Part shown: one piece after another, positions 2,743-55,226 of the stretch
How positions within the stretch are numbered: the first letter of the stretch is position 1
Layout: each line of letters starts with the position of its first letter
Source of the DNA: an uncultured Chloroflexia bacterium
GTDB lineage: Bacteria > Chloroflexota > Dehalococcoidia > UBA2979
Assembly: GCA_963728205.1 (NCBI GenBank)
Contig: CAVSIV010000006.1
Location: 830,831 to 894,830 of the forward strand
Length of the DNA stretch: 64,000 nt
Direction: 5' to 3'
Program-made: the position numbers and the translations under genes
The notes under the pieces: generated by a model
What the model was told of the DNA's origin: nothing
What the model saw: only the letters and a program-made list of their open reading frames with translations
Databases searched by the model: none

Positions 2743-2913
2743 CCAAAGCGGCGTCAGACATGACGCCGACGGACCCGGCGGCGCGAGCCGCCTGGCGGGC
2801 CGCGATGACGCCGAGCGTCGCCTTCGGGGGAGGCGCGGGATGGTCCCCGCACCCGGGTTGGCGGCGGCCGAAGCGCCGCCGACCTGTCGGCGTCATGTCT
2901 GACGCCGCTTTGG
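2743..2913. repeat. double-hairpin palindromic element, subfamily B (REPIN-like)
   Basis: Arm CCAAAGCGGCGTCAGACATGACGCCGACGG (2743-2772) and its reverse complement (ending 2913) flank a spacer of about 110 nt. Each arm contains the hairpin CGGCGTCA-GACA-TGACGCCG. Confidence 0.85.
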
Positions 2914-3297
2914 TCGCGGGGGTATCGCCCTACTTCACGAGCACGACGACGATGTCGCCGTGGTTCGGCTCCCGCAGGCTCGAGGGGAGGCGCGGGATGG
3001 TCCCCGCACCCGGGTTGGCGGCGGCCGAAGCGCCGCCGACCTGTCGGCGTCATGTCTGACGCCGCTTTGGTCGCGGGGGTATCGCCCTACTTCGCGAGCA
3101 CGACGACGATGTCGCCGTGGTTCAGCTCCCGCAGGCTCGAGGGGAGGCGCGGGATGGTCCCCGCACCCGGGTTGGCGGCGGCCGAAGCGCCGCCGACCTG
3201 TCGGCGTCATGTCTGACGCCGCTTTGGGCGCGGGGTATCGCCCTACTTCACGAGCACGACGACGATGTCGCCGTGGTTCAGCTCCCGCAGGCTCGAG
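2828..3297. repeat. tandem triplication of a 157-bp unit (half palindromic element plus gene 3' end)
   Basis: Units start at 2828, 2985 and 3142 (157/157/156 bp, a few substitutions). Each unit contains the distal spacer, the right arm of the element, a 13-nt gap, the stop codon and the last 18 codons (SSLRE[L/P]NHGDIVVVLVK) of CDS 3243-3947. Only the third copy is joined to the gene. Confidence 0.9.
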
Positions 3298-3947
3298 ACG
3301 AAGTCCGGCGCCCCGGCGACGTACTGCCGCACCATCCCGCCCGAGACCCGGAACACGAGCTGCACCTGCCGCGGGATCGTCGCGACCGCATCCGCGATCG
3401 GCGTCGCGTCCGCGCCGTCCCACGTGAGGAGGCCGTAGCCGGACCCCGGCGGGAGCGCGCCGGTGAAGCCGCCGACCGCCACGACGTCGGTCGCCGCGGT
3501 GAGGTTCACCTGCTGCGGGGTCGTGCTCCACGTCGCGACCTGCGTCGCGGCGAGCCCCGGGTCCACCGCGCCGTACATCAGCAGGAAGCGCACGTCGTCG
3601 CCCGGCGCCGGGCAGCCGGCGTGGGTCTCCGACGACGCCACCGAGAGCATGTAGAACCCGCTGCCGGCGCCGGTCTTCGTGACGTCCGCGGTGCCGCAGA
3701 CGGCGGGCTCATGCCCCGGCGCGGCCGGACCCAGCGCGCGCACCTTCGACGGCAGCGCGCCCGACTGATCCGCGTAGACGAAACCGAAGATCGTCGACGC
3801 GCCCCCATCGGCCCGCGCGCGTCCCGCCGTCGCCGGCAGGAGCGCGCCGGCGACGAGCACCGCGGTCATGATTACCAGGATCGCCAGCGCGCGCGGACTG
3901 CGCGCAGCGCTACCGAGCCGACCGGTCCCGGCTCTCGAATCCATCAC
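3243..3947 (-). CDS. secreted hypothetical protein with the shared C-terminal module
   Basis: 234 aa with a signal peptide (ALAILVIMTAVLVAGALLPATAGRARA). The C-terminus YVAGAPDFVSSLRELNHGDIVVVLVK is related to the IPGAPAFVNA...VLVVK module of neighbouring surface proteins. Confidence 0.75.
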   Translation of the reverse strand: MMDSRAGTGRLGSAARSPRALAILVIMTAVLVAGALLPATAGRARADGGASTIFGFVYADQSGALPSKVRALGPAAPGHEPAVCGTADVTKTGAGSGFYMLSVASSETHAGCPAPGDDVRFLLMYGAVDPGLAATQVATWSTTPQQVNLTAATDVVAVGGFTGALPPGSGYGLLTWDGADATPIADAVATIPRQVQLVFRVSGGMVRQYVAGAPDFVSSLRELNHGDIVVVLVK

Positions 3948-4062
3948 ACCCGACCCCCGTCCGCCCCGGCGCAGTCGCGCGCGGAACGAGAAGATTGCGG
4001 AACCGGCCCCGCCGGCTCCCTTCCGCGTTCGACCCGTGGTCGTGTCGAGCGGGGAAGGGAGT

Positions 4063-4130
4063 CCCCGTCCCCTCCGAGGAGAGGACGGGGGTCCCGTTCA
4101 CGAACGTGCGCCGCTCGCGAGGAGCGGCGC
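4063..4130 (-). terminator. two GC-rich hairpins downstream of CDS 4148-4660
   Basis: GCGCCGCTC-GCGAG-GAGCGGCGC (4108-4130) and CCCCGTCC-N12-GGACGGGG (4063-4090) follow the stop codon on the minus strand. There is no U tract. Confidence 0.5.
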
Positions 4131-4147
4131 GCGCTCGAGCTGCGTGC

Positions 4148-4660
4148 CTAGCGGCGGCGCGTGGCGGCGCGAGCGCCACCGACCGCGATCACCGCGAAGG
4201 CGGCCAGCGCCAGCATCGAGGCGAGCCCCGTGCTGTGGCCGACCAGGAAGCCCGCGTTGCCGGTGCCGGCCGGGGCCGGAGCCGTGCTCGTGGCCGTCGG
4301 GGTCGCCGTGGCCGAGGCCGTCAGCGTGACACCGTTGGCAACGTTCGCCGGCGCGCCGCCGGCCTTGTAGGTCTCCTTGGCCGTGGTCGGGGCGCCGTTC
4401 AGCGTGAAGGTGAGCGTGTCACCGTCCGCCGGGCTGCAGGTCGCGTTGGACGCGATCTGGAGCTGCCACTGGCCGCTGGCGTCGGCCGTAGCCGTGCCGC
4501 AGGACTTGGCGCCGTCGAAGACCTCGACCTTGTCGCCGGCCTTGAGGCCGACGCCGTAGACCGTCATCGGGGGCACCTGCGCCGAGGCGATCGTCGCGAA
4601 CATCATGAGCGCGACGGCCGCGACGCCGAACGGCACCGCCATTTTCCGGAGAAGACTCAT
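4148..4660 (-). CDS. secreted protein with a C-terminal anchor-like or sorting-signal-like tail
   Basis: 170 aa from ATG 4658-4660 (RBS AAAGGAG). Signal peptide MSLLRKMAVPFGVAAVALMMFATIASAQ, then a T/P/A linker. The tail is GNAGFLVGHSTGLASMLALAAFAVIAVGGARAATRRR. Confidence 0.75.
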   Translation of the reverse strand: MSLLRKMAVPFGVAAVALMMFATIASAQVPPMTVYGVGLKAGDKVEVFDGAKSCGTATADASGQWQLQIASNATCSPADGDTLTFTLNGAPTTAKETYKAGGAPANVANGVTLTASATATPTATSTAPAPAGTGNAGFLVGHSTGLASMLALAAFAVIAVGGARAATRRR

Positions 4661-4796
4661 CTGCAAGAACTCCTTTGAGTTCTGACCCGCCCCTGGGTGG
4701 TTAGCCATCCGTCCCCCTCACGCTCGTGAGCGTCCGGCGGAGCTGGGTGGGTACGCGTGCCTCCCTCATCGCGAGATGGCCGGGAGGCGGAGACAA

Positions 4797-4833
4797 GGTT
4801 CACCCCCCGCCCCGAGAGGACGGGGGGTGAACC
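4797..4833 (-). terminator. hairpin terminator of the large surface-protein gene
   Basis: Perfect 13-bp stem GGTTCACCCCCCG / CGGGGGGTGAACC with an 11-nt loop, starting 10 nt after the TAA stop (4843-4845) on the minus strand. Confidence 0.6.
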
Positions 4834-4842
4834 GCTAGTCGC

Positions 4843-6660
4843 TTACTTGACGACGAGGACGATCGTGCCCGCCGGGACCTCGTTCGGGAAGGCGGCGTTG
4901 AACGCCGCGTTCACGAACGCCGGGGCGCCCGGGATGAGCACAACGGCCTGGCCGTTGACGAAGACCGTCACCGAGATGCCGCCCGCCGCGGAGACCGCGG
5001 ACGAGAGCTGGGCAACCGTGCCGCCGTTCCAGACCGCGGTGTTGACACCGACGTTCGGGATTGCGCGGTCAAAGGTGCCCGCGCCGGTCGTGCCGGTCGG
5101 GGTCGCCGTCGGCGTGGCCGCCGGGGCACCGACAGTGGCAACCGTCGAGTCAACGACGGAACCGGATGCGCTCGGGCACGTCGGGGCCGCAGAGGAACCG
5201 GTCTGAGCGGCGACCAAGACACTGCCCGAGGTACCGGTCAGTGCAGCCGTCGTGTTCGCCGTCCCGCTCGACGTGGTGCCGCACGCGACCGAAACAACAC
5301 CCTGGGTCGAGGGGATGTTAAAGGTCACGACGGTGCCGTTTGCGGCCATGTTGCCAGAGGCATCCACAACCGTCGCCGTCACCTTGTTGGCCGTCACTGC
5401 AGCAGTAACAGTTGCCGGCTTGCCAGCCGCCGTCACCGTCGCCGTCGCGGCCGGAACCGACGACGTCGTGATGTCAGTCGCGGTGATCGTCGCCGTGCCA
5501 AGCTGGGTGGCGGATGCGCAGTACGTGACGTACGCGTAGCCCGGCGTCCCGCTCAGCGAGGCCGTTGTCGCCGTGACCGCCTTGGCCGTAGTCGAGGTGG
5601 CCGGGGTTGCCAGACAAGCCGCGCTGGCGCCGCTCGCCAGGAAGCCCTTGTCCACCGAAACCTGCAGGAGCTGACCGTTGACGCCAGCACCCGTCGCGTC
5701 AGTGACGCGGAAAAGCACGTTCGTACCCGTGGTCGGCGACGTGTAGGACGCCGACGAGCTGCTGGCCGCAACGTTCGCGTCAGTGACCTTCACCGTCGTG
5801 AGGGTCGTCGGCGTCGTGCCGGTCGCAGCCTGCAGCGTCAGCGTCGTCGTGTCGACAGCGCTGAGCGACGGAACGGAGGCAACGATGGTGTCGCTACCCG
5901 ACGTCCCATTGCCCTTGTATGCGACCGACGCACAGCCGGTCGTCGCGTCCGTGAAGGAGCTCGCCGAGTTGGTGCCGGTCGCAACGAAGAGACCCAGGCT
6001 GCCAGTGAAGTTCACCTGCGTGGGAGCAGTGGGAACGGGCGAGACACAAGCCTTGATGGTCGACGCCTGCGCGCCGCTCGCAGCGATCGTTGCCGGGGTC
6101 GCGATGACTGAAACGGCGTTTGAGGTCGAAACAGTCAGCGCACCCGCAACCGGCGTACCGAAGGTACCAGCCGCACCGCCGCCGAGTGCGGACGTGATAT
6201 TGCCAGTGGCAGCAGTGGTGCTAATGGGCCGCACCTGAATGCCGGAGATGGTGACCGTGTCACCAGCGACATTCGCGGTAGTGGCCGTGCCGGTGGTAAT
6301 CGTGGCGGCCGCAACCGTAGCCGTTCCAGCGACGCCCGCGACTGTGCCGGTCGTGGTAACCGTCACGGTAGCCGCTGTATTGAACTCCCAGTCCGCGCTC
6401 GGCCGGGAAAGCACGATCGAGTCGCCAATCGCGATATCTCCGGTCGCACCGGTCGTGAACTTAGCGTCCGGCAGAGTCGTCCAGGCACCAGTCCCAGTCG
6501 TCGCGTTCGTTGCCAGCGAGATGGTGGCGCTGGCGGAGCTTGTCGTCGTCGCCGCCGCACTCGCCGTCCGCGCCGTTCCCGAAACGAGCAGCGCTACAGC
6601 GAGCACCAACGACGCGGCAACAGCAGAGCCGTACCACGCGTACTTCTTGAAAAGACTCAA
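4843..6660 (-). CDS. large secreted surface protein with Ig-like (Big_1-type) repeats and the shared C-terminal module
   Basis: TTG start at 6658-6660, 8 nt after GGAGGA; there is no in-frame ATG near the signal peptide LSLFKKYAWYGSAVAASLVLAVALLVSGTARTASA. 605 aa, T/A/S/G-rich, with invasin-like repeats such as VTATVVDASGNMAANGTVVTFNIPS. It ends VLIPGAPAFVNAAFNAAFPNEVPAGTIVLVVK. Confidence 0.8.
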   Translation of the reverse strand: MSLFKKYAWYGSAVAASLVLAVALLVSGTARTASAAATTTSSASATISLATNATTGTGAWTTLPDAKFTTGATGDIAIGDSIVLSRPSADWEFNTAATVTVTTTGTVAGVAGTATVAAATITTGTATTANVAGDTVTISGIQVRPISTTAATGNITSALGGGAAGTFGTPVAGALTVSTSNAVSVIATPATIAASGAQASTIKACVSPVPTAPTQVNFTGSLGLFVATGTNSASSFTDATTGCASVAYKGNGTSGSDTIVASVPSLSAVDTTTLTLQAATGTTPTTLTTVKVTDANVAASSSSASYTSPTTGTNVLFRVTDATGAGVNGQLLQVSVDKGFLASGASAACLATPATSTTAKAVTATTASLSGTPGYAYVTYCASATQLGTATITATDITTSSVPAATATVTAAGKPATVTAAVTANKVTATVVDASGNMAANGTVVTFNIPSTQGVVSVACGTTSSGTANTTAALTGTSGSVLVAAQTGSSAAPTCPSASGSVVDSTVATVGAPAATPTATPTGTTGAGTFDRAIPNVGVNTAVWNGGTVAQLSSAVSAAGGISVTVFVNGQAVVLIPGAPAFVNAAFNAAFPNEVPAGTIVLVVK

Positions 6661-7142
6661 AGCAGTTGTCCTCCAATTGAGAACGTTGTCACTCGATAAC
6701 ACGCACTTCGATTCTCTGCGATGCCTCCTCTCGCCGCGTCCGGCTCCTCCGTGAGGGGGAGCGCCCCGTTCCTGGCAGAACGGCGGCCGGCGAGCCTTCT
6801 TTCCAAGCGGTGCTGATACCGCCGCTCGAGCAAAACGCCACCAGCGCCGCTCGAAATCACGCTCGCTGCGAACCTTCGAAATCCGCGACGGGCGGCGTGG
6901 TCCAAGACACACACCTCACGCCACGAGACTTAGAACGCCCCCGGGCAAGACTGAGTTAACAGCGGGGGTGGGCCTGATACGCAGTAAAGAGGTAACCGGG
7001 CAAGACGAGTGGCGCGACCTGACGAACGCCCGCAGGTCGATCCCCTATCGGGAGCGCGCTAGCCGGTGACCGCGCGATCGGCGACGATCGTCCAAGCATT
7101 GATCTCAGCACGACGCCGGCGCACCTGAAGGAAGCGGCTGCC

Positions 7143-7748
7143 ATGACGAACTCAAACCACCGACGCGCCGAGTCAGACGCGACCGCCGCGTTCGGCGGCA
7201 ACGGTCAGCCGGACGGACCGCGTCGCTGGTTTCGTGGACCATGGGGCGTGGTCGCGGCCGGTGGACTGATTACGGCAGTGCTTGCCGCCACGCTCGTGAT
7301 CCTGCTTCCGCGGGGCGATCACTCCCGCGAACCCGCGAAGACGACCACCCCAGTCGCGCATGTCGTTACCGGTGGCATTGGGGACCCACTTCGCGTCGGA
7401 TCGCTCGCCCTGAGGGTGATCGAAGTCAACGCGGCCTTCGATGGTAGCCACTATGCACCCGCGAACACCGCTACCTCCGCCGTCCATATCGCAGTGACTA
7501 ACGCAGGAGATACCGGCAATCCCATTCAGCTGGCGACAAAGGACTTTCGCCTGATCGACGAAGATGCAGGCGGCCATGGAACCGTGGGTTGCGCGCAATG
7601 TCCCGCGGTGATCGGCAACGTCAATCAGCTCGTTCCTAACGGCGGGATCGACGGGTGGTTGTACTTCGCGTTGCCCGCGGGAACGACAGCCAGCCAACTC
7701 GTCTACACCGGAGCTACCGGGATCACGGCCACGATCACGCTCCGCTAG
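7143..7748 (+). CDS. membrane-anchored hypothetical protein (DUF4352-like beta domain, tentative)
   Basis: 201 aa with one TM helix (WGVVAAGGLITAVLAATLVILL) followed by a beta-rich domain. Third-position GC is visibly lower than in neighbouring genes. Confidence 0.65.
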   Translation: MTNSNHRRAESDATAAFGGNGQPDGPRRWFRGPWGVVAAGGLITAVLAATLVILLPRGDHSREPAKTTTPVAHVVTGGIGDPLRVGSLALRVIEVNAAFDGSHYAPANTATSAVHIAVTNAGDTGNPIQLATKDFRLIDEDAGGHGTVGCAQCPAVIGNVNQLVPNGGIDGWLYFALPAGTTASQLVYTGATGITATITLR

Positions 7749-7759
7749 GCGAAGCGAAC

Positions 7760-8878
7760 CTACGGGGCCACGGCGTCGGGCGGGACAGTACCAACCGCCC
7801 GCGTCGCCGAGGGCACCACCGTCGCGGGCGCCGTCGAACTCGATGCCGCGGTTCCTCTCCCGTTCGGGGTCCCCGACGGACTCGCCGCTGGGGTGAGAGC
7901 ATCGGTTGTGGCCGGTATGGCGGTCCCCGTCGCCTGTACCGTCGCCGTCACCGTGCTTGTCGGCGTTTCGGTGGTGTCGGCCGTCGGCGTCTCCGTCGCA
8001 GTTACCTCGGACGTCGGCGTCGCCGTCTCCGTCGCCTCGGGCGTCGCCGTCGCCGTCTCCGTCGCCACAGGCGTCCCGGCGTCCCCGTGCGACTCGAGGT
8101 AGCGCGCCGCGGTCACGACGCCCTGGTCGGCCGTCACCTGCGCGGCGCTCAGCGCACCCTCGGCGCCCGCCTCGGGCTTCGCCGTCTGCAGCACCTGCCG
8201 GCTCTGGTTCGCGGCGCGCGCGTACTGCGCGACGGTGCCGGGGTCGACGCGCTCGGGCTGCGCGGCGATCTGCTGCTGCACCGAGGCGTTGTCCTCGGTC
8301 ACGCGGCGGAGGAGGTCGGTCTGCACGGGCACGCCGCGCTGCGTGTTGCTCGCGATCTCGGCGAGCGTGGTCTGCAGCCGTGCGAGCTGCGCGTCGAGCG
8401 AGCGCGGGGTCTGGTTCTCGACGGTCGGGCCGGTCGCCAGCTGCGGCGTGCCGGAAAGGCCGCCGCCGGCGAAGGCGGTGAAGGTGATCGCCGCGGCGGC
8501 GGCCGCGGCGGCCATCGGCGCGAACACCGAGACGACGCGGGTGCGCAGGCGGCGCCGGCGCTCGGCCGCGAGCGACACGGGCGCGCGCTCCATGCGGTGC
8601 AGGATCGCGGCGCGCGAGCGGGCGCGGTAGGAGTCGAAGGCGGGGCCATCGGTGGCGTCGGCGAAGAGGTGCTGGAGGACGGCGGCGGTCTGGACGAGGC
8701 CGGCGAGCGCGGGGTCTTCGCGCGGATCGACGTCGGGCTCGCGACCGGACGCGAGCTCCTCGAGCGCCTCGTCCAGGCGCTGGGCCTCGGCCAGGTCGGC
8801 GGCGTCCCCGGTGAAGAGGGGGTCCCCCCGCCGGGTATCCCCGGCGTCGAAGGAGTGCAGCGGCTGGTCTGCCGACAT
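7760..8878 (-). CDS. anti-sigma-factor-like membrane protein
   Basis: 372 aa from ATG 8876-8878 with a single TM helix (VVSVFAPMAAAAAAAAITFTAFAGG) and a T/E/A/P-rich extracytoplasmic tail. It lies downstream of the ECF sigma gene on the same strand. No zf-HC2 motif was seen. Confidence 0.65.
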   Translation of the reverse strand: MSADQPLHSFDAGDTRRGDPLFTGDAADLAEAQRLDEALEELASGREPDVDPREDPALAGLVQTAAVLQHLFADATDGPAFDSYRARSRAAILHRMERAPVSLAAERRRRLRTRVVSVFAPMAAAAAAAAITFTAFAGGGLSGTPQLATGPTVENQTPRSLDAQLARLQTTLAEIASNTQRGVPVQTDLLRRVTEDNASVQQQIAAQPERVDPGTVAQYARAANQSRQVLQTAKPEAGAEGALSAAQVTADQGVVTAARYLESHGDAGTPVATETATATPEATETATPTSEVTATETPTADTTETPTSTVTATVQATGTAIPATTDALTPAASPSGTPNGRGTAASSSTAPATVVPSATRAVGTVPPDAVAP

Positions 8879-9112
8879 CTCCGACCCGTTCCGGGCCGCC
8901 CACGCGTGGGGCGGCCACACTGTGCCGGTGAGTCGCCGGGCGGCTTGCGCCGGCCGCGCGCCATCGGGGCTGGCGGAGCATCGTCGGTGGCGCCGTGCCG
9001 TGGGTTCGCCCTGCGGCGACTGGCCCCCGCCAGGCTCGGCGGTCCGCGATGATCCTCTCGTGGTCTGCGCGACCGGCGGGCGTTAGGCCCGGGGGTCGCC
9101 TGCTGGTGGCGT

Positions 9113-9330
9113 CAGCAGCGGGCGGTACGCCCGCTGTGCGCCTGTGTGCGGCGGGCCGTGGCCCGCTGTGCGCCTGGCAGCGGGCGGGACGCCCGCTGTG
9201 CGCCTGTGTGCGGCGGGCCGTGGCCCGCTGTGCGCCTGGCAGCGGGCGGGACGCCCGCTGTGCGCCTGGGCAGCGGGCCTACCGCCCGCTGTGCGCCTGG
9301 CAGCGGGCGATACGCCCGCTGTGCGCCTGG
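9113..9330. repeat. tandem array of seven hairpin units between the sigma and anti-sigma genes
   Basis: Units of 29-33 bp. Each is a hairpin, either CAGCGGGCG-NNN-CGCCCGCTG or GCGGGCC-GT-GGCCCGC, followed by TGCGCCTGG. The first four units form two 62-bp higher-order repeats. There are no spacers. Confidence 0.9.
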
Positions 9331-9356
9331 GTCGCGGACGGACGTCCGCGGCGTTC

Positions 9357-10232
9357 CTACTGGTCCGCGCTCCGCACCCAACTGGGCTCGGGGCGCGTGT
9401 CGCGGAGGATCTGCTTCAGGCGCTGCACGCCCTTGTGCTGCAGCACCTTGACGTTGCCCTGCTGCTTCCCGAGCGCCTCGGCCGTTTCCGCGACGGAGAG
9501 GCCGGCGCCGAATCGCAGGCGAATCACGTCGCGCTGCGCTTCGGGGAGCAGTTCGACCGCGTCAAAGACCTCCTCGATCGTCAACTGCGTCTCGGCGAGG
9601 TCCTGCGGGCCGCGGCGCTCGTCCGCGATCCAGTCCGGGACCTCGGCGCCCGGGTCGTCCTTCACCACGCGGCGATGGACGGTGGCCCGGCGGTGGAACG
9701 AGACGACGTGGTTGTGAGCGATGCGGAACAGCCAGGCCGCGAAGGGGCTGCGCTCCCCCGCGCCGATGTCCCGCCACTCGAACCCGTCGACCGCCCCCAG
9801 GACCTTGAGGAAGATCTCTTCCGCGAGGTCCTCCGCGTCCGTCTCGTTGCCGACGCGCGCCAGGCAGTAGCGATACAGCCTGGTGACGTACGCGTCGTAC
9901 AGGAGGCCTACCGCCTCCAGGTCTCCGTGAGCGGCACGCTGCACGTACTCGCGCTCGACGGCGACGGACAGCTGGTTCGGATTCGACGGCGCTGGTCTCG
10001 CGGGATCCCCCGTTCGTCGCGGGGAGTCGGCAGCGGGATCGGCGCCCTCGGCGTGTGGCGAGATGTCTGCCACCGGGCTTCCCTTCGCGCCGGCCCCCGC
10101 TGCGACCGGCCCCGGTGGGCCGTCCAGTGCATCGGGATCGCGGGACGGGCTCCCCGCACCGGCATGACCGGGGAGGTGCGCGTCCGCACGAGTATAGGTG
10201 GCCTGCGCCAAGGGGAGAGGTGTGTCGGACAT
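9357..10232 (-). CDS. ECF (sigma-70 family) RNA polymerase sigma factor
   Basis: 291 aa from ATG 10230-10232. Region 2 (LYRYCLARVGNETDAEDLAEEIFLKV, FAAWLFRIAHNHVVSFHRR) and region 4 (LPEAQRDVIRLRFGAGLSVAETAEALGKQQGNVKVLQHKGVQRLK) are present. It has a P/A/G-rich N-terminal extension of about 95 aa. Confidence 0.9.
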   Translation of the reverse strand: MSDTPLPLAQATYTRADAHLPGHAGAGSPSRDPDALDGPPGPVAAGAGAKGSPVADISPHAEGADPAADSPRRTGDPARPAPSNPNQLSVAVEREYVQRAAHGDLEAVGLLYDAYVTRLYRYCLARVGNETDAEDLAEEIFLKVLGAVDGFEWRDIGAGERSPFAAWLFRIAHNHVVSFHRRATVHRRVVKDDPGAEVPDWIADERRGPQDLAETQLTIEEVFDAVELLPEAQRDVIRLRFGAGLSVAETAEALGKQQGNVKVLQHKGVQRLKQILRDTRPEPSWVRSADQ

Positions 10233-10310
10233 CTCCCACCGCACTATCAACAACGGTACGGACCGTGACCGGGTTAACGGGGGGCGCAGGCGCGGGGGCC
10301 GCATGAGGTG

Positions 10311-10337
10311 TAACGAAGGCGGAGGGGGATTCGTTCC
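10311..10337 (-). promoter_or_regulatory. ECF-type promoter candidate upstream of the sigma gene (autoregulation)
   Basis: On the minus strand, GGAAC (10333-10337), spacer GAATCCCCCTCCGCCTT (17 nt), then CGTTA (10311-10315). It sits between the NYN stop codon and the sigma ATG. Confidence 0.5.
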
Positions 10338-10370
10338 GGGGCGGTTTGCATGGCGCGCGGTCACGCGCCT

Positions 10371-10982
10371 TTACCAGCTCGCTGGCTTCGAGAAGGTCCC
10401 CGTGGCGTCCGTGAGTGTGGTCGGGAACTGACTTGCGGAGAGGACCCCCGCGCGAATCGGTTTGTAGAAGGTCGAGACGTTCCGCAGATCGTACGCCTGC
10501 TTCTTGTGGGGGTTCAGCAGTCCCACCGGCAGCCGCAGGTCATTCATCACGAGCTCAATCGGCGTCTTGAGGTCGGAGTCGTTGGAGATGACGACCGCCT
10601 GTTCGAACCCTCCACGATGCGCATCGTGGAGCGGGTGGCTGGCCAGATTCACGTCGGAGCCCTTCTCCTCGGTGTCATGGACCCACACGTATCCGCCTCC
10701 GTTCACGAGGGGGCGGGACTTCTGCTTTGCGAGGAAGCGCCCGAGGTAGACCGTGACGCACGGAATGTCGCAAGGGCCCGCAGGTCGATCTGTTGTCGCT
10801 GGGCCGCCTGCGGGTCCGACGGGCGGCTGGTCACGGGTGCTGTGAAGTAGCGGATGCGCTGAACTTGATGGCCGGGGAAGCAGGTGCCGGCACAGCGTCT
10901 CGATGTCGATCCACTTGTACACGGTGCCCTTCAGGGCGCCGTAGTACAGGTTGAAACCGTCCACGTACACATTCGTGCGCAT
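10371..10982 (-). CDS. NYN (LabA/PIN-like) domain protein with an internally frame-swapped segment
   Basis: The 203-aa frame is open. MRTNVYVDGFNLYYGALKG and EEKGSDVNLA ... VVISNDSDL ... LLNPHK are NYN-like. About 37 codons (10765-10877) are read in a non-conserved frame. The +1 frame over that stretch encodes the expected GHQVQRIRYFTAPVTSRPSDPQAAQRQQIDLRALAT. Confidence 0.7.
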   Translation of the reverse strand: MRTNVYVDGFNLYYGALKGTVYKWIDIETLCRHLLPRPSSSAHPLLHSTRDQPPVGPAGGPATTDRPAGPCDIPCVTVYLGRFLAKQKSRPLVNGGGYVWVHDTEEKGSDVNLASHPLHDAHRGGFEQAVVISNDSDLKTPIELVMNDLRLPVGLLNPHKKQAYDLRNVSTFYKPIRAGVLSASQFPTTLTDATGTFSKPASW

Positions 10983-11306
10983 AGGCAGAGACCCCCGTCA
11001 CCGGGGGTCTCGCGCCCAGCGGCCGAGGCCACTGGGGGGATATCGGGATCGATCCTGACCCGCCCCGGTCAACATGTCACGCGAGAACGGCCAACAACTA
11101 CCCGCAAATGTGGTGGCCGGGTCCGCCCGCAGCGAAAGCTACCAGCGTTCCTCGCGCGACCGGCACGACACCTGCGGATTTGCAGGGGCGTGCCCGCAAT
11201 CCAGACGGTGCTAGGAAGGGGCCGGCGAGCGAGGATCGCATGCGAACCGCCGTCGGGCCGACCGGCGGCGCGCAGAGCCAACGGGCGGCCACGGGAGTGT
11301 GCGTGT

Positions 11307-11328
11307 TACGATGTATTGCGCTGCAATA
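11307..11328 (+). promoter_or_regulatory. -10-like hexamer plus AT-rich palindromic operator
   Basis: TACGAT (11307-11312), then TATTGC-GCT-GCAATA (11314-11328), just upstream of RBS GCGAGG and the ATG at 11341. Confidence 0.45.
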
Positions 11329-11340
11329 AGCGAGGCCGCG

Positions 11341-11763
11341 ATGCCCCAATCGACCATGAGCCTCCGTCTCGACGACGAGCTGCGCACCCGCCTCGCCGAT
11401 GCCGCCACGCAGGCGGGGACGACCGTCACGGCGCTGGTCGACCGCTTCGTGCGCGAGGGCCTCGCCCTGGACGGCCACCCCGGCATCACGTTCAAGCCCG
11501 GGCCGTCCGGGCGGCGCGCGGCGCTCGCCGGCGGGCCCGACGTCTGGGAGGTGGTAGCCGCGCTGCGCGACGTCGCGGGGACCGGGTCGCAGCGGGTCGC
11601 CGCGCTGGCGGCGCAGTTCGGCATCCACGAGCGCCAGGTCGTCGCGGCGCTCGACTACGCAGCCGCGCACCGCGACGAAGTGGAGGCACGGGTCCGCGCG
11701 AACGACCGTGCGCTCGAGGAGGCGGAGCGCGTGGCCCTCGAACGGGGGCGCCTGCTCGCGTGA
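11341..11763 (+). CDS. antitoxin-like protein (RHH N-terminus plus DUF433-like domain)
   Basis: 140 aa. MSLRLDDELRTRLADAA is RHH-like. ITFKPGPSGRRAALAGGPDVWEVV ... VAALDYAAAHRDEV is DUF433-like. Its stop codon overlaps the GTG of the next gene. Confidence 0.7.
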   Translation: MPQSTMSLRLDDELRTRLADAATQAGTTVTALVDRFVREGLALDGHPGITFKPGPSGRRAALAGGPDVWEVVAALRDVAGTGSQRVAALAAQFGIHERQVVAALDYAAAHRDEVEARVRANDRALEEAERVALERGRLLA

Positions 11764-12092
11764 AGTTCCTCGTCGACGGGATGCTCCCGCCGGCGGTCGC
11801 GGACCTCCTGAACGCCTCCGGGCACGACGCGGTCACCCCGGCCGACCTGGGCGCCCACAGCCTTCCCGACGACGTGCTGGTCCGGCTGGCGACGGCGGAG
11901 GCGCGCGTGATCGTCACCGAGAACGCAAGCGACTTCGCCCGCGTCGCGACGTGCCCGGTGCTGTTCGTCCGCAAGTCATGGTGGCCGACGGGCGCGCTCG
12001 CGGAGGGGCTGGCGCGCTCGCTCGACCGATGGGCGACGGCGCATCCCGACCCCGGGCCGTGGCCGCACTGGCTCGAGTCGACGGAGCGCTGA
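11760..12092 (+). CDS. DUF5615 / Mut7-C PIN-like putative toxin
   Basis: 110 aa from GTG 11760 (GTGA overlap). VKFLVDGMLPPAVADLLNASGHDAV ... VIVTENASDFARV is typical of DUF5615 partners of DUF433 proteins. Confidence 0.7.
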   Translation: MKFLVDGMLPPAVADLLNASGHDAVTPADLGAHSLPDDVLVRLATAEARVIVTENASDFARVATCPVLFVRKSWWPTGALAEGLARSLDRWATAHPDPGPWPHWLESTER

Positions 12093-12117
12093 CCGATCGC
12101 CCGGGGAAGGTGGGCGG

Positions 12118-12213
12118 CGGCGTGGTCACGGGGCGGCGTGGTCGCCAGGGTCGTGGGGTCACGGGGTCGTGGCGTCACGGGGGTCACGGGGTCGTGGGGT
12201 CACGGGGTCGCGC
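12118..12213. repeat. short tandem repeat (about 16-bp unit CGTGGGGTCACGGGGT, about 5.5 copies)
   Basis: Read directly from the sequence. It is intergenic, between the DUF5615 stop codon and the vapB promoter region. Confidence 0.8.
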
Positions 12214-12288
12214 GTTGATCCTCAGCCCGCTCACGCGGCGGCCGTTCGCCGTGGCGTAACTCGAGTCGGTCCGCGGCCACGCGCCTGA

Positions 12289-12317
12289 ATGGTAGAATCG
12301 CCATACGCGATGGTAGA
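12289..12317 (+). promoter_or_regulatory. vapBC promoter/operator candidate
   Basis: TAGAAT (12293-12298) is embedded in a direct repeat of ATGGTAGA (12289-12296 and 12310-12317, 21 nt apart), upstream of RBS GAGGTG and the ATG at 12343. Confidence 0.4.
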
Positions 12318-12342
12318 CGCGGACCCGAGGTGCGACGTGAGC

Positions 12343-12594
12343 ATGAACATCAAGAGCGAGGACGCACACCGACTCGCCCGCGAGTTGGCGTCGCTGACAG
12401 GCGAGAGCGTCACCGCTGCCGTGACGGAGGCCCTGCGCGAGCGCCTCGAGCGCGTTCGCCGCGAGCGGGGCGAAGAGACGCTCGCCGACCGGTTGGCCGC
12501 TATCTGCCGAGCATCCGCGCCACACTTCCGGGAGGGGTTCCGGTCCGCCAATCATGCCGACCTCCTGTACGACCAGCGCGGCCTGCCGCGGTGA
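12343..12594 (+). CDS. vapB: VapB-family antitoxin
   Basis: 83 aa. MNIKSEDAHRLARELASLTGESVTAAVTEALRERLERV is the typical VapB N-terminus. Its TGA stop overlaps the GTG of vapC. Confidence 0.85.
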   Translation: MNIKSEDAHRLARELASLTGESVTAAVTEALRERLERVRRERGEETLADRLAAICRASAPHFREGFRSANHADLLYDQRGLPR

Positions 12595-12986
12595 TCCTCG
12601 AGACCTCCGCGCTTCTCGCGATGCTGCTCGACGAGCCGGACGCCGAGGCGTATCAGCGGGCGATCGACGCTGCGTCGACGCGGCGGATATCCGCGGGCAC
12701 GCTGCTCGAGACGTGCATCGTGGTGGACGGCAACGGCGATGCGGTCGCCGGTCGCCTCCTCGACAATCTCCTCGCCGCAGCGGGGGTCGCGGTTGAGCCG
12801 GTCACGGTGGAGCAGGTGCGCATCGCGCGCGCCGCCTACCGCGACTTCGGCCGGGGAAGCGGTCATCCGGCGCGCCTGAACTTCGGTGACTGCTTCGCGT
12901 ATGCGCTCGCCAGGGCCACCGGCGAGCCGCTGCTGTTCAAGGGCGAGGACTTCGCGCAAACCGACCTCCGCTCCGCGCTGACCTAG
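12591..12986 (+). CDS. vapC: PIN-domain ribonuclease toxin VapC
   Basis: 131 aa from GTG 12591. VILETSALLAMLLDEPD ... ISAGTLLETCIVV ... LNFGDCFAYALA carries the PIN acidic residues. Confidence 0.9.
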   Translation: MILETSALLAMLLDEPDAEAYQRAIDAASTRRISAGTLLETCIVVDGNGDAVAGRLLDNLLAAAGVAVEPVTVEQVRIARAAYRDFGRGSGHPARLNFGDCFAYALARATGEPLLFKGEDFAQTDLRSALT

Positions 12987-12993
12987 CGCGCAA

Positions 12994-13091
12994 CCACAGC
13001 GGCGGCAGACATGCCGCCGACAGAACGCGGACGCCAGTCTGCGCGGCCGGCGCCGGGGCGCCTGTCGGCGGCATGTCTGCCGCCGCTGTGG
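12994..13091. repeat. double-hairpin palindromic element, subfamily A (REPIN-like)
   Basis: Arm CCACAGCGGCGGCAGACATGCCGCCGACAG and its reverse complement flank a 38-nt near-palindromic spacer. It lies 8 nt after the vapC stop and about 105 nt after the convergent stop at 13196. Confidence 0.9.
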
Positions 13092-13195
13092 TTCATGGGG
13101 TGGCCCGCGCACAGAAAGTGGGCGGGCCGCCCCGGGAGAGGCGGCCCGCCTGCGAAGCGGTCGGACGGCGGGCCGGTCCGCCCGCGCGCGCTTCG

Positions 13196-13999
13196 CTACT
13201 TGACGACCAGCACGATCGTGCCGGCGGGAACGGTCGAGGGATACGTCGCGTTGAACTCGGCGTTCACGAACGCCGGGGCGCCGGGGATCAGCACCTGGGC
13301 CTTGCCGTTGACGAAGACCGTCACCGAGATGCCCTGCGCCGCGAGCGTCGCGGACGCCATCTGCTGCACGGTGCCGCCCTGCCAGATCACGGGGTTGACG
13401 CCGACCGTGTCGATCGGGCGGTCGAACTTGCCGAGCAGGTTGACCGCAAGCGCGCTCAGGCTCGTGACGTCGGCGACGTCGTTCGTGCCGTTGGAGACCG
13501 TCGCGTCGCCGTCGAGCGAGATGCCGATCGTGCCGGAGGCGGTGTCGGCGGTGTCGGGCTGCACCTTGATGCCGGACAGCATGAGCGTGTCACCGGCGGC
13601 GGAGCCGGTGGTCACGTTCAGCACGATCTCGTGCTGCGTCGGGGTGACGGTGCCGGTGGCGGCGCCGCCGATCTGGAGCGTGCCGGTGCCGCCGACGGTG
13701 TAGGTGACCGGGGCGGAGGTGTCGAACGACCAGCCGGTCGGGGCCTCGATCTTGATGCCGTTGGCGGTGGTCATCTCGTTGCCGGTCGCCGTGATCGTGA
13801 TCGGCGTGAGCGCCGTGAAGGTGTTGGCGCCGGTCGCGGCGTTGGTCGTCGGCTGGATCACGGCGTCGGCGCGCGTGGTCACCGTCGGCGCCGCGGCCTG
13901 CGCGAGGCCGGGCGCGGCCGCGAGGAGCATGCCGGCCGAGGCCGCGAGTGCAGCGATGGCGGCGCCTCCGCGCCAGGTCCAGGTGCGCAGTCTGCTCAT
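13196..13999 (-). CDS. secreted surface protein with the shared C-terminal module
   Basis: 267 aa from ATG 13997-13999 (RBS GGAGAGGA). Signal peptide GGAAIAALAASAGMLLAAAPGLAQA. It ends GKFDRPIDTVGVNPVIWQGG ... VLIPGAPAFVNAEFNATYPSTVPAGTIVLVVK. Confidence 0.85.
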   Translation of the reverse strand: MSRLRTWTWRGGAAIAALAASAGMLLAAAPGLAQAAAPTVTTRADAVIQPTTNAATGANTFTALTPITITATGNEMTTANGIKIEAPTGWSFDTSAPVTYTVGGTGTLQIGGAATGTVTPTQHEIVLNVTTGSAAGDTLMLSGIKVQPDTADTASGTIGISLDGDATVSNGTNDVADVTSLSALAVNLLGKFDRPIDTVGVNPVIWQGGTVQQMASATLAAQGISVTVFVNGKAQVLIPGAPAFVNAEFNATYPSTVPAGTIVLVVK

Positions 14000-14046
14000 A
14001 GGTGCGTGGTTCCTCTCCTGTGGGTGGTTGCGCTGTCGAGGGTTCC

Positions 14047-14071
14047 AACGACGGCGGGAACGGGAGGGTTC
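14047..14071 (-). promoter_or_regulatory. ECF-type promoter candidate (GAAC-N17-CGTT)
   Basis: On the minus strand, GCGAAC (GAAC at 14068-14071), a 17-nt spacer, then CGTT (14047-14050), 48 nt upstream of the ATG at 13999. The leader length is nearly the same as at 695-720. Confidence 0.4.
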
Positions 14072-14127
14072 GCGCGAGATCGCGCGATCGTGCGGATCGA
14101 TAGGGAATCGATAGGGGCGCATCGCCG

Positions 14128-14224
14128 CCACAGCGGCGGCAGACATGCCGCCGACAGGGACGCGGCGCCAGCCGCGCGGACCGGCGTCCGCGTGCTGTCG
14201 GCGGCATGTCTGCCGCCGCTGTGG
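14128..14224. repeat. double-hairpin palindromic element, subfamily A
   Basis: Both 30-nt arms are intact. It lies 79 nt upstream of the transposase-like ORF. Confidence 0.9.
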
Positions 14225-14302
14225 TTCGCGCAGGTCACCTTGCGGGCGGTGGCCGTCAAGCCTGACGGCGACGGGAATGCGCTCGGCCGCCACCCTGTGC
14301 AC

Positions 14303-14857
14303 ATGGACCGGTACTGGCTGCTCACCTGGACGACGTATGGCACGTGGCTCCCCGGCGATCCCCGCGGCTCCACGCTGCGCGTCCCCGACGTGGACGGCGA
14401 CGGACGCTCGCGGACGTTCCTTCGGCTGAAGGGCGAGGGCGGCCGCGCCCGCGGGCTCGCCCGCAGCGCGGCGCGGCGGATGACGGGGCCGCCGGCGCGG
14501 CTCACGGCGGACGAGGCGCGGGTCGTCCTGGACGAGATCCGCTCGCAGGCGCGCTTCCGGCGATGGGCGCTGCCGGCATGCGCGGTGATGGCGAATCACG
14601 TCCACGCCGTCGTGGGACTCGGCCCGGATGAGGAGCCGTCGCGCGCGCTGCACGCGTTCAAGGCGTACGCGAGCCGCGCGCTGAACGACCGCCGCGGACG
14701 ACCGGCGGGAGGCACGTGGTGGACGCAGTCGGGATCCACGCAGCGGCTGCGATGGGAGGCGAACGGCGTCGCCGCCGTGCGCTACGTGCGCGAGCAGCCC
14801 TACCCGCTCGCGGTCTGGATCGCACCGGGCGTCGACCCAACCGGCGGCGGTGGCTGA
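14303..14857 (+). CDS. Y1 (HUH) tyrosine transposase-like protein, REP-associated (RAYT-like)
   Basis: 184 aa. MDRYWLLTWTTYGTWLPGDPRG, the HUH motif in VMANHVHAVVG, and the C-terminal Tyr motif AVRYVREQPYP. These are the layout of IS200/IS605-type TnpA and RAYT proteins. Confidence 0.75.
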   Translation: MDRYWLLTWTTYGTWLPGDPRGSTLRVPDVDGDGRSRTFLRLKGEGGRARGLARSAARRMTGPPARLTADEARVVLDEIRSQARFRRWALPACAVMANHVHAVVGLGPDEEPSRALHAFKAYASRALNDRRGRPAGGTWWTQSGSTQRLRWEANGVAAVRYVREQPYPLAVWIAPGVDPTGGGG

Positions 14858-14893
14858 CGGGGCGCCGGGCGGCGATCGCCGACACGCCGCCAC

Positions 14894-15010
14894 CCACAGT
14901 CGCCACCCACAGTCGCCAGCCACAGTCGGTACCCACAGTCGCCACCCACAGTCGCCACCCACAGTCGCCACCCACAGTCGCCAGCCACAGTCGCCACCCA
15001 CAGTCGCGAA
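14894..15010. repeat. 9 tandem copies of a 13-bp unit CCACAGTCGCCA(C/G) abutting a palindromic element
   Basis: CACAGT recurs every 13 nt from 14895 to 14999. The next period lands on the first bases (CCACAGCGGCGGC) of the element at 15011. A period of 13 is not compatible with coding. Confidence 0.9.
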
Positions 15011-15107
15011 CCACAGCGGCGGCAGATATGCCGCCGACAGCCCGCGGACGCCAGTCCGCGCGGCTAGCGCCGCGCATCTGTCGGCGGCATATCTGCCGCC
15101 GCTGTGG
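15011..15107. repeat. double-hairpin palindromic element, subfamily A, GATA-loop variant
   Basis: The arms read CCACAGCGGCGGCAGATATGCCGCCGACAG. Both carry the same C-to-T loop change, so the two arms remain complementary. Confidence 0.9.
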
Positions 15108-15214
15108 TTCGCGGTTGCCCCCGGCCCGCGCGGTGGTCCGCGGTGCCGGCCCGCGCGGTTGCCCCCGGGCCGCGCGGGGGTTCGCGGTTGCCCCCGGCCC
15201 GCGCGGTGGTCCGC
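15106..15214. repeat. imperfect direct repeats (about 35 bp, GTTCGCGGTTGCCCCCGGCCCGCGCGGTGGTCCGC)
   Basis: Two near-identical copies start at about 15106 and 15180, with a related fragment between them. They lie between the palindromic element and the CoA-transferase start. Confidence 0.6.
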
Positions 15215-15285
15215 AGCGCCGGCCGCGCGAACCCGCGTTACCCACCCGCGCGCTATCGTTCGCGCCGCAGCAGAGGGGGACGCGC

Positions 15286-17858: not shown

Positions 17859-17982
17859 CCTCGGCGGCGGCAGACATGCCGCCGACAGCGGCGGGGCGCC
17901 AGCCGGGCGGACCTGGCTTCCGCGGACCCTGTCGCGGACGGGCGTCCGCGTCCTGTCGGCGGCATGTCTGCCGCCGCTGAGG
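17859..17982. repeat. double-hairpin palindromic element, long-spacer variant
   Basis: Arms CCTCGGCGGCGGCAGACATGCCGCCGACAG and its complement flank a 64-nt spacer. It starts 11 nt after the CoA-transferase TAG stop. Confidence 0.85.
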
Positions 17983-34787: not shown

Positions 34788-34990
34788 GCGTGGCCGGCTG
34801 CGGCGTGGCCGGCTGCGGCGTGGCCGGCTGCGGCGACCGGCTACCGCGACCGGCAGCGGCGGCCGGCAGCGGCGGCCGGCAGCGGCGGCCGGCAGCGGCG
34901 GCTGCAGCCGGACCTCGGCGGCGACCGGCTACCGCGACCGGCAGCGGGGGGCGGCACCGGCGGCTGCAGCCGGGACCTCGGCGGTCACGG
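34788..34990. repeat. compound short tandem repeats next to a palindromic element
   Basis: (GGCGTGGCCGGCTGC)x3, (GGCAGCGGCGGCC)x4, and a segment of about 85 bp (GGCGACCGGCTACCGCGACCGGCAGCGG ... GGCTGCAGCCGGACCTCGGCGG) present twice. Confidence 0.8.
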
Positions 34991-35000
34991 GCGGCCCCGG

Positions 35001-35058
35001 CCACAGCGGCGGCAGACATGCCGCCGACCTGTCGGCGGCATGTCTGCCGCCGCTGTGG
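35001..35058. repeat. minimal palindromic element: the two 28-nt arms joined by a 2-nt loop
   Basis: CCACAGCGGCGGCAGACATGCCGCCGAC-CT-GTCGGCGGCATGTCTGCCGCCGCTGTGG, a perfect 28-bp inverted repeat that lacks the usual spacer. Confidence 0.9.
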
Positions 35059-53173: not shown

Positions 53174-53271
53174 CCACAGCGGCGGCAAATATGCCGCCGA
53201 CCGGTGCGCGGCGTCGGCCGCGCGGGCAGGAAGCCCGCGTGCTGTCGGCGGCATGTCTGCCGCCGCCGTGG
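53174..53271. repeat. double-hairpin palindromic element, asymmetric (decaying) copy
   Basis: The left arm has an AATA loop and the right arm has the canonical GACA loop. It lies between an SDR stop (53276) and the aldolase start (53152), both on the same strand. Confidence 0.85.
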
Positions 53272-54822: not shown

Positions 54823-54947
54823 GTGCTGTCGTCCCTCCCCGTGGGATGACCGGCGGTGCCGGCCCGCTTCCCGGCGCGGAGTCTAGGGGCGCGCCCGGGG
54901 GCCGTCGAACGGATGCGGAACGGGACCGGGTGAACGCCGGATGGCGG

Positions 54948-55137
54948 GCGACGCCGGCGCCGGACGGCTGGCGCGCCGGCGCTGGACGGCAGACGCGCCG
55001 GCGCCGGACGGTGGGCGATGCCAGCGCCGGACCGCTGGCGACGCCAGCGCCGGACGGCTGGCGCGCCGGCGCCGGACGACGGGCGATGCCAGCGCCGGAC
55101 CGCTGGCGACGCCAGCGCCGGACGGCCGGCGCGCCGA
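54948..55137. repeat. tandem repeats of about 21 bp (GCGMYGCCRGCGCCGGACSGSTGG) with a 63-bp higher order, abutting a palindromic element
   Basis: About 9 units read directly from the sequence. They run into the left arm of the element at 55138. Confidence 0.8.
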
Positions 55138-55226
55138 CCGCGGCGGCAGACATGCCGCCGACAGGTGCGCGCCAGCCGCGCGGCTGGCGCCGCAATCTGT
55201 CGGCGGCATGTCTGCCGCCGCTGTGG
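55138..55226. repeat. double-hairpin palindromic element (left end truncated by 3 nt)
   Basis: CCGCGGCGGCAGACATGCCGCCGACAG ... CTGTCGGCGGCATGTCTGCCGCCGCTGTGG. It lies 18 nt after the Crp-family stop codon on the minus strand. Confidence 0.85.

Follow-up and report, generated by a model that had tools for sequence, protein, structure and literature searches.

The window analysed here is a 64-kb stretch of DNA with 73% GC (contig CAVSIV010000006.1, positions 830,831 to 894,830), taken in full, and it carries a family of short palindromic elements together with one small transposase gene at 14303-14857. We consider it very probable that the elements are REPINs, that is, inverted doublets built from repetitive extragenic palindromic (REP) units, and that the gene encodes their matching transposase, a HUH/Y1 protein resembling the REP-associated tyrosine transposases (RAYTs), within a REPtron. 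The elements are called REPINs below in that sense.

Searching the window for the 20-nt core CGGCGGCAGACATGCCGCCG with up to three mismatches returned 21 matches, against 0.14 expected from dinucleotide-preserving shuffles, and these group into eight loci, all of them inverted pairs of arms. Each arm is a 30-nt unit made up of a CCACAG foot, an 8-bp stem (CGGCGGCA/TGCCGCCG) around the 4-nt loop GACA, and then ACAG. Seven loci carry this G/C stem and one, at 2743-2913, carries a T/A stem, which bears out the element coordinates and arm sequences given in a first-pass annotation of the same DNA. A covariance model of the arm recognizes 18 REP units in the window at 40 bits or more, and the next match scores 21.5 bits; a search with this model for decayed singlets found no REP unit between the two values, and the gap indicates that the window holds none. 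Every REP unit sits either in an inverted doublet or in a tandem duplication. All eight loci lie outside open reading frames (ORFs) supported by third-position GC content and are thus extragenic, in mixed positions: some follow stop codons or lie between convergent genes, and others stand upstream of genes or between divergent genes. The transposase gene and the G/C-family loci are as follows, with the sign for an element giving the orientation of its interior.

14303-14857, plus strand: RayT-like HUH/Y1 transposase gene, 184 amino acids, intact; starts MDRYWLLTWTTYGTWLPGD; Pfam Y1_Tnp, fold match
12994-13091, +: REPIN, G/C family; between a convergent VapC-PIN gene (ends 12986) and the gene 13196-13930 (minus strand)
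14128-14224, -: REPIN, G/C family; 79 bp separate its end from the transposase start codon downstream; forms the REPtron's left flank
15011-15107, +: REPIN, G/C family; loop GATA in both arms; right flank of the REPtron
17859-17982, -: REPIN, G/C family; 27-nt interior insertion; starts 11 nt past the CoA-transferase stop
35001-35058, unoriented: arms-only element, G/C family; 58-bp near-perfect palindrome with the interior deleted
53174-53271, -: REPIN, G/C family, asymmetric copy; between the stop of a short-chain dehydrogenase/reductase gene (53276) and the start of an aldolase gene (53140)
55135-55226, -: REPIN, G/C family; interior almost wholly palindromic; left outer foot altered to CGACCG; ends 18 nt before the stop of a Crp-like gene (55244, minus strand)

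The full-length G/C elements share an oriented interior of about 37 nt, cACGCGGAC-GCCn-GTCCGCGCGGCTgGCGCCGCG, with two small hairpins of its own. The interiors align once four of the six full-length elements are reverse-complemented, those four lying opposite to the other two. Differences between copies fall in loops, feet and interiors. The GATA loop that the first-pass annotation saw in both arms of 15011-15107 is indeed there, and in 17859-17982 the outer foot reads CCTCAG in both arms, a mirrored A-to-T change, with one further, unmirrored change in the left arm. The copy at 53174-53271 is asymmetric, as had been described: it carries four unmirrored changes in loop and feet, among them AATA and two other unmatched changes in the left arm, and its stems are intact.

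A Pfam scan of about 45 likely ORFs in the window identified a single transposase, in the ORF 14192-14857, with an IS200-like Y1_Tnp domain (PF01797) scoring 25.6 bits against a gathering score of 23. All of its homologs begin at MDRYWLLTWTTYGTWLPGD, which identifies 14303-14857 as the real gene and not the longer frame from 14192, the upstream extension of which merely overlaps a REPIN arm. The NCBIfam model for REP-associated tyrosine transposases (NF047646) matches the protein with an E value of 1e-9 and 38 bits against a cut-off of 80, a stronger match than that to the IS200 model, where the protein scores 24 bits and the cut-off is 55; the 40 aligned members of the clade all match both models, in every case below cut-off. 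In this alignment of 40 homologs, His99 and His101 of the HUH motif NHVH are invariant, as is Gln165; Tyr161, within a tyrosine motif of the form YVRxQ (Y-x3-Q), is shared by at least 90% of the sequences. An AlphaFold2 model with a mean predicted local distance difference test score (pLDDT) of 92.6 places Tyr161 in the C-terminal helix and Gln165 in or just past it. The best 30 matches of a fold search against the Protein Data Bank (PDB) were all TnpA proteins of ISDra2, IS608 or IS200 or the Escherichia coli RAYT bound to a REP hairpin (4ER8), to which the window protein is about 12% identical. A profile search of the PDB returned IS200/IS605 transposases and two spurious matches to designed kelch-repeat proteins, and a plain sequence search was weak on its own. 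Homologs number at least 537, the closest being 68% identical. The protein's cluster has one member on one contig, and the sole paralog on the same 1.87-Mb contig (P0134) is only 57% identical, which suggests that the gene has no recent copies.

The gene is bracketed by the REPINs at 14128-14224 (-) and 15011-15107 (+), whose interior orientations show that they are inverted relative to each other. A gene placed between inverted REPs is known as a REPtron (Ton-Hoang et al.; PMC8266576, PMC6006769), and the gene with its two flanking REPINs has this REPtron, or REPIN-RAYT, layout. We examined five independent loci encoding homologs, which were picked through the protein and are therefore unbiased as to hairpin sequence. 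Four of the contigs hold both flanks, and all four show inverted hairpins of the same design on both sides of the gene; the fifth, L044, ends just past the gene, and its upstream hairpin is present. Percentages in the following lines are identities to the window protein.

L036 (P0123, 61%): CGCAAG-CGGCGGCA-GGTA-TGCCGCCG-AC; 28 nt, the two flanks being 100% complementary
L035 (P0122, 68%): CCACAG-CGGCGGGC-GATA-GTCCGCCG-AC
L044 (P0133, 52%): GCGAG-CGGCGGGC-TTCAG-GCCCGCCG
L039-43 (P0124, 60%): arrays of GTCAAG-CGGCGGC-TGACGG-GCCGCCG
L037/38 (P0126, 51%): clusters of AACAG-GGGGC-TAAC-GCCCC, with further copies 3 and 10 kb off

In L037, a cluster of four REPs (6637-6770) lies inside a called methyltransferase-type gene of 1,437 amino acids (5468-9781), which may reflect either an in-frame REP insertion or a gene call that fuses two ORFs.

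Beyond these loci, the arm was absent from JGI metagenomes when searched with a pattern covering both arm types. A scan of a genome collection with a degenerate arm pattern gave at least 34 single chance matches, none of the matches listed having a partner arm, and says nothing on the occurrence of the family there. The host is without close relatives in the searched collections: the best homolog of the neighbouring CoA-transferase is 53% identical. A second metagenome scan, with a two-arm REPIN pattern in which inner stem and loop were left free, returned five REPIN-like loci with a GGAG foot, L045, L046, L048 (RCUQ01... contigs), L047 and L049. These are unrelated to the window family, share the outer stem CGGCGG/CCGCCG and serve only to illustrate mirrored loops: a T/C loop variant is mirrored in both arms (L045 versus L046), and four of the five doublets are symmetric at unconstrained positions. 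The inner stem of L049 contains three A-T pairs.

Folded as single-stranded DNA (ssDNA), the G/C arm reaches a minimum free energy of -11.9 kcal/mol (z -5.9) and the T/A arm -10.6 kcal/mol (z -5.1), and an arm carrying only the G-to-T or only the C-to-A change reaches -6.3 or -8.7 kcal/mol. The first-pass annotation had read these two substitutions as a matched pair, and on these energies the change is a genuine compensated one. A full element of about 97 nt folds into a long hairpin at -56 to -59 kcal/mol (z about -11), consisting of a perfect 30-bp duplex of the arms and a partly paired interior, or into a four-hairpin 'clover' at -38 to -41 kcal/mol. The asymmetric copy reaches -45 kcal/mol (z -5.7), and the three copies of about 97 nt that were tested span z scores from -5.7 to -11.6. 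A full-element hairpin had been proposed earlier on the strength of near-palindromic spacers. The hairpin and its arm duplex hold up in these folds; the spacer is not symmetric and is an oriented interior of about 37 nt that pairs only in part. All eight loci are inverted doublets, as expected for REP doublets that fold into one long hairpin.

Compensation within the arm hairpin is best seen across families. Within the G/C family all eight pairs are invariant in both arms, and there is thus no covariation to count. The test across families and genomes used an alignment of 17 distinct units, nine from the window and eight from the flanks of RAYT homologs, with one L044 loop base removed for register. 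In this alignment, 98.5% of cells stand in a standard pair against 86.8% after shuffling, and none of 500 shuffles reaches the observed value. Double-sided changes number 11 against 2.8 ± 1.3 in shuffles (0 of 500), and further pair types six against 2.3 (1 of 500). Each of the three inner pairs varies by compensated changes, and the signal is lost when partner columns are slid. We conclude that the arm hairpin is supported by several independent compensations, in the T/A element, L035, L044 and the L039-type units.

The same cannot be said of the whole-element helix, in which one arm pairs with the other. Among the six G/C elements compared, 97.2% of cells are paired against 96.0% after shuffling, two pairs show double-sided changes and five cells do not pair; values as good arise in 35 to 60 of 500 shuffles, and the result is not significant. 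Arm changes in the G/C family comprise two that are mirrored and nine that are not. Under a cruder null, in which 13 substitutions fall uniformly at random on 14 arms, the probability is about 0.06 for at least one mirrored pair and about 0.0014 for at least two. All 13 arm substitutions lie outside the 16 stem positions, and pairwise identity is 100% in stems, 89% in feet, 85% in loops and 79% in the interior. Thus, the strongest signal inside the window is conservation, with substitutions avoiding the stems, and not covariation. The covariation at two nested levels that had been claimed for the family stands at the level of the arm hairpin, through compensations across genomes; at the level of the whole element it is not significant, and within the window the invariant G/C stems offer none. 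The T/A subfamily with its duplicated right arms, put forward as support, proved in the window to be a single locus with a local tandem duplication, the outcome that, for a genome-wide alignment, the first-pass annotation had itself named as telling against it. Its interpretation is partly right, on thinner in-window evidence than it claimed, and it overlooked the transposase gene, which explains the family. Selection on the structure of single-stranded DNA, which it had named among its readings, fits, since the window holds a HUH/Y1 transposase and relatives of this enzyme act on ssDNA hairpins (PMC8266576).

The closest parallel is the REPIN-RAYT system of Pseudomonas fluorescens SBW25 (GI-GIII), where REPINs were defined and where compensatory changes across the hairpin were already reported in 2011 to be common (Bertels and Rainey 2011, PMC3116915). 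REPINs there can fold either as a hairpin or as a 'clover', and where they cluster, they do so in tandem repeats that take in flanking sequence (PMC3116915). The window family resembles this system in its inverted REP hairpins, less conserved spacer, long-hairpin and 'clover' folds, extragenic placement, a RAYT flanked by its own REPINs, compensatory changes, and tandem clusters with flanks, matched here by a 157-bp triplication. It differs in its ACAG foot (not GTAG), in its uncharacterized 73%-GC host lineage, in its transposase clade and in an interior with two extra small hairpins. With the E. coli REPtron, its bacterial interspersed mosaic elements (BIMEs) and the TnpA-REP proteins (Ton-Hoang 2012; Messing 2012, 4ER8, PMC3479197; Corneloup 2021, PMC8266576), the window shares the HUH/Y1 fold and a gene placed between a REP and an inverted REP. 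The substrate of the E. coli and group 3 TnpA-REP enzymes is an ssDNA hairpin with an unpaired foot, and group 3 enzymes need a perfect stem for cleavage; by analogy, the same design here may serve the same purpose. In contrast to the window elements, the REPs of E. coli carry a GTAG foot and a bulge that is conserved, and the window protein, so distant from 4ER8 in sequence, lacks Y-x3-NP.

Other relatives lie nearer to insertion sequences. The 'class 3' TnpA-Y1 proteins are rare, are intermediate between IS200 transposases and RAYTs and have not yet been studied experimentally (Quentin et al. 2018, PMC6006769). The window transposase is like them in length (184 against about 178 amino acids), in its NHVH and W-T motifs (WWT here), in Y...Q instead of Y...NP, in an extended conserved N-terminus, in having relatives in Planctomycetes, and in flanking hairpins of an atypical, non-GTAG kind, which in class 3 can be highly repeated. 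It departs from the class as printed in the spacing between Y and Q (four residues in class 3, three here) and in the foot (CnGA in class 3, ACAG here), and the class 3 assignment, made by comparison with printed motifs only, is tentative. The IS200/IS605 elements IS608 and ISDra2 supply the transposase fold and catalytic motifs among the best PDB matches, and their enzymes recognize subterminal hairpins in ssDNA. Their same-strand end hairpins, multiple near-identical copies and frequent tnpB beside tnpA are not seen here. Judged by the text of the paper describing them, the CGTC/TGTC-tagged REPs (Di Nocera et al. 2013, PMC3733652) are also similar, as the opposite strand of the window arm reads cTGTC-GGCGGCA... 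and that of L035 and L039 gCGTC-GGCGG...; the 8-bp stem, 4-nt loop and head-to-head dimers are shared as well. Unlike the window family, the CGTC families begin their stem with two A/T pairs, end in a CCA tail and were reported without a dedicated transposase (PMC3733652). What is new in the present case is a family whose foot is ACAG and not GTAG, a clade of transposases that falls between IS200 TnpA and classical RAYTs, and an uncharacterized high-GC lineage.

How the system may operate is suggested by the TnpA-REP systems of E. coli, Stenotrophomonas and Marinomonas and by IS608 and ISDra2. The transposase would bind REP hairpins in DNA that has become single-stranded, as on the lagging-strand template, and the unpaired foot beside the stem would guide the choice of cleavage site. 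Cutting and rejoining of ssDNA by the enzyme would then mobilize REPINs and allow them to spread through extragenic space, with only those copies whose arms still fold into the correct hairpin remaining substrates. We propose that this last requirement would account for invariant stems within a family, compensated stem changes between families and genomes, and drifting loops, feet and interiors. For TnpA-REP of Stenotrophomonas and Marinomonas, one mismatch in the stem is enough to lower cleavage or abolish it (PMC8266576), which gives a direct reason why foldable arms should persist and why stem changes should come in compensated pairs.

Several observations weigh against a REPIN-RAYT system. 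The foot is ACAG (AAAG in the T/A element; CAAG, CACAG, GAG or AACAG in relatives) and not the canonical GT[AG]G, with which ACAG shares only the terminal AG, the part of the GTAG foot on which cleavage critically depends in the Stenotrophomonas system (PMC8266576). At 38 bits the protein does not reach the curated RAYT cut-off of 80 bits, and it has Y-x3-Q, as in IS200, in place of Y-x3-NP. REPINs are expected in dozens to hundreds of extragenic copies per genome, and the count of eight loci in 64 kb covers the window alone, in a host for which the searched collections yielded no close relatives. Two mirrored loop or foot changes are not enough to demonstrate selection on the long hairpin, and no excision or insertion polymorphism was observed. 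The system works like a REPtron or REPIN-RAYT pair, and strict membership among classical RAYTs is unmatched on two points, the foot and the protein (its score and its motif).

Among other explanations, the most serious is that changes mirrored from arm to arm and paired within an arm arose by templated copying and not by selection, through intrastrand template switching in quasi-palindromes or gene conversion between arms, a process that can also act alongside REPIN-RAYT mobilization. Positions that are unpaired in the arm hairpin are mirrored too (GATA in 15011-15107, CCTC in 17859-17982), as are loops in the unrelated GGAG-foot loci (L045 versus L046; four of five symmetric at unconstrained positions). 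Two mirrored pairs are improbable under uniform substitution (P about 0.001), and a symmetric REPIN must be re-established after an asymmetric intermediate (Bertels and Rainey, PMC3116915). However, nine of 13 arm changes are unmirrored, the copy at 53174-53271 stays asymmetric, and the interior halves B1 and B2 have not been homogenized. Copying alone also leaves unexplained why stems are free of substitutions beside varying loops and interior, and why transposase-linked hairpins in other genomes pair with different bases. We regard it as somewhat unlikely to stand in place of selection; for the mirrored loop and foot changes, it remains a live and non-exclusive explanation. A different proposal takes the whole of 14128-15107 as an autonomous insertion sequence of IS200/IS605 type and the short elements as its non-autonomous derivatives, similar to palindrome-associated transposable elements (PATEs) or miniature inverted-repeat transposable elements (MITEs), and not as a domesticated RAYT with REPINs. 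The unit is bounded by 30-bp inverted arms, the protein also matches the IS200 model and has the Y-x3-Q motif of IS200-type TnpA (PMC6006769 Table 1), and class 3 Y1 proteins are said to resemble both insertion sequences and REPtrons (PMC6006769). Set against this are a protein cluster of one member with only a diverged paralog on the contig, flanking hairpins that are inverted where the left and right end hairpins of IS608 and ISDra2 are same-strand, the absence of tnpB next to the gene in the ORFs scanned, and short elements that far outnumber the gene in the window. By the features tested (a single cluster member, inverted end hairpins, no tnpB in the ORFs scanned) we rejected an IS200/IS605 insertion sequence, and consider this proposal improbable.

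That the host keeps the hairpins for a cellular role, such as transcription termination, protection of mRNA 3' ends or binding of gyrase or integration host factor (IHF)-type proteins, with the transposase incidental, is in our view more improbable still. Effects of this kind are known for E. coli REPs (PMC2817692, PMC3479197), and four elements (12994, 17859, 53174 and 55135) do lie 5-18 nt past a stop codon or between convergent genes. Yet those at 14128, 15011 and 35001 stand between divergent genes or upstream of a gene, the elements have no uniform orientation relative to the genes beside them, no Rfam family matches the elements, and hairpins of the same design beside homologous transposases at five other loci argue for a link to the transposase. 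Reading of the flanks at the eight loci showed no T-run after the hairpins, and with this and the mixed positions and orientations the intrinsic terminator was dropped as a candidate. Least credible of all is that a DDE transposase, encoded elsewhere, moves the elements as ordinary MITEs bounded by terminal inverted repeats. Perfect 30-bp terminal inverted repeats, small size, extragenic position and multiple copies would suit such elements, but every terminal repeat forms a hairpin on its own, two of the copies have a Y1 transposase between them, and none of the approximately 45 ORFs scanned encodes a DDE transposase. DDE-type MITEs were rejected because no direct repeat, and hence no target-site duplication, occurs at the junctions of any of the eight loci. 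A CRISPR-like array was also dropped, as there is no regular repeat-spacer layout.

The T/A element and the tandem arrays that accompany the repeats are as follows.

2743-2913, unoriented: T/A-type REPIN-like element, 171 bp; arms CCAAAG-CGGCGTCA-GACA-TGACGCCG-AC, scoring 44-44.5 bits
2827-3297, unoriented: 157-bp unit triplicated in tandem at 98% identity; takes in the T/A element's right half and about 70 bp from the 3' end of a minus-strand gene ending at 3243
14888-15016, plus strand: tandem array in which the 13-mer CGCCACCCACAGT is repeated about ten times; lies immediately downstream of the stop codon of the transposase gene
15110-15229, unoriented: GC-rich tandem repeats with periods of 19 to 44, directly past REPIN 15011-15107
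34792-35013, unoriented: tandem array of units with CAGCGGCGG (REP foot plus 5' half-stem), abutting element 35001-35058
54935-55136, unoriented: tandem array of 23-nt (68/90-nt) units, abutting REPIN 55135-55226

The T/A stem, CGGCGTCA-GACA-TGACGCCG, is found at 2749, 2888, 3045 and 3202. The extra right arms at 3041-3070 and 3198-3227 are part of the triplication and are thus not independent copies. The interior of the element is longer than, and unlike, that of the G/C family, and CGGCGGC/GCCGCCG hairpins adjoin each arm. The nearest relative of the paralog P0134 is P0123 of locus L036, and the CAAG foot of the REP at that locus resembles the CAAAG foot of the T/A element. This similarity between feet suggests that the T/A element may belong to the second transposase, and that the genome may have two transposase-REP pairs.

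Of the six large extragenic tandem arrays that the window contains, five touch a REPIN. In the array at 14888-15016, the last 13-mer unit is also the outer end, CGCGAACCACAG, of REPIN 15011-15107, so that the REP foot has in effect been multiplied; the array could be the product of slippage or a footprint of repeated cleavage and rejoining. Arrays of REP end sequence beside REPINs are the least explained feature of the window and the best lead for something new. In a more speculative reading, which we think unlikely as a whole, a REPIN population with an ACAG-type foot would be driven by a barely studied 'class 3'-like Y1 clade, the abutting arrays (above all those of the 13-nt and CAGCGGCGG units) would be footprints of repeated cleavage and rejoining at the REP end, and the mirrored arm changes would record template-directed rebuilding of the second arm during transposition.

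Some neighbouring features are of separate interest. A second hairpin repeat, G-CAGCGGGCG-GKA-CGCCCGCTG-TGCGCCTG, is present at 9115-9337 as seven tandem units of 31 nt, where they alternate with a variant in which the inner pair is flipped (GCGGGCC-GTG-GCCCGC...), upstream of a sigma-70 family gene (9357-10370, minus strand). A two-domain family III CoA-transferase is split across two frames near 16520 (15292-16521 and 16520-17848). Its homologs are single proteins of about 770 amino acids and a paralog at 23728-26172 (minus strand) is intact, and the split copy represents a frameshift or pseudogene, or a sequencing error. Genes of toxin-antitoxin type cluster near the repeats (2362-2700, 12594-12986 and 10884-12092): a MazF/PemK domain (2362-2700) ends 43 nt before the T/A element, and a VapC PIN gene (12594-12986) ends 8 nt before the REPIN at 12994, with a PIN_10/DUF5615 protein (10884-12092) just upstream. 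The region 4843-8000 has a lower GC content (0.65-0.70 against 0.73), includes an ORF of 689 amino acids without a Pfam match (4843-6912, minus strand), and may be acquired DNA.

The value of these observations is mainly explanatory, as what had looked like two-level covariation is the pattern to be expected of REPINs whose folding is preserved for an ssDNA transposase. Known biology is extended by this case and not changed. The window presents a compact REPtron, with the gene, the pair of REPINs that flank it, scattered copies and a diverged sister family, and the lineage is deep-branching, with 73% GC and no close relatives. The ACAG foot, as a non-GTAG sequence, provides a natural variant with which the guide-sequence model of cleavage-site choice can be tested. 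Additionally, the transposase clade lies between IS200 and classical RAYTs, and such intermediate transposase-REP systems bear on how REP-RAYT partnerships originated from insertion sequences.

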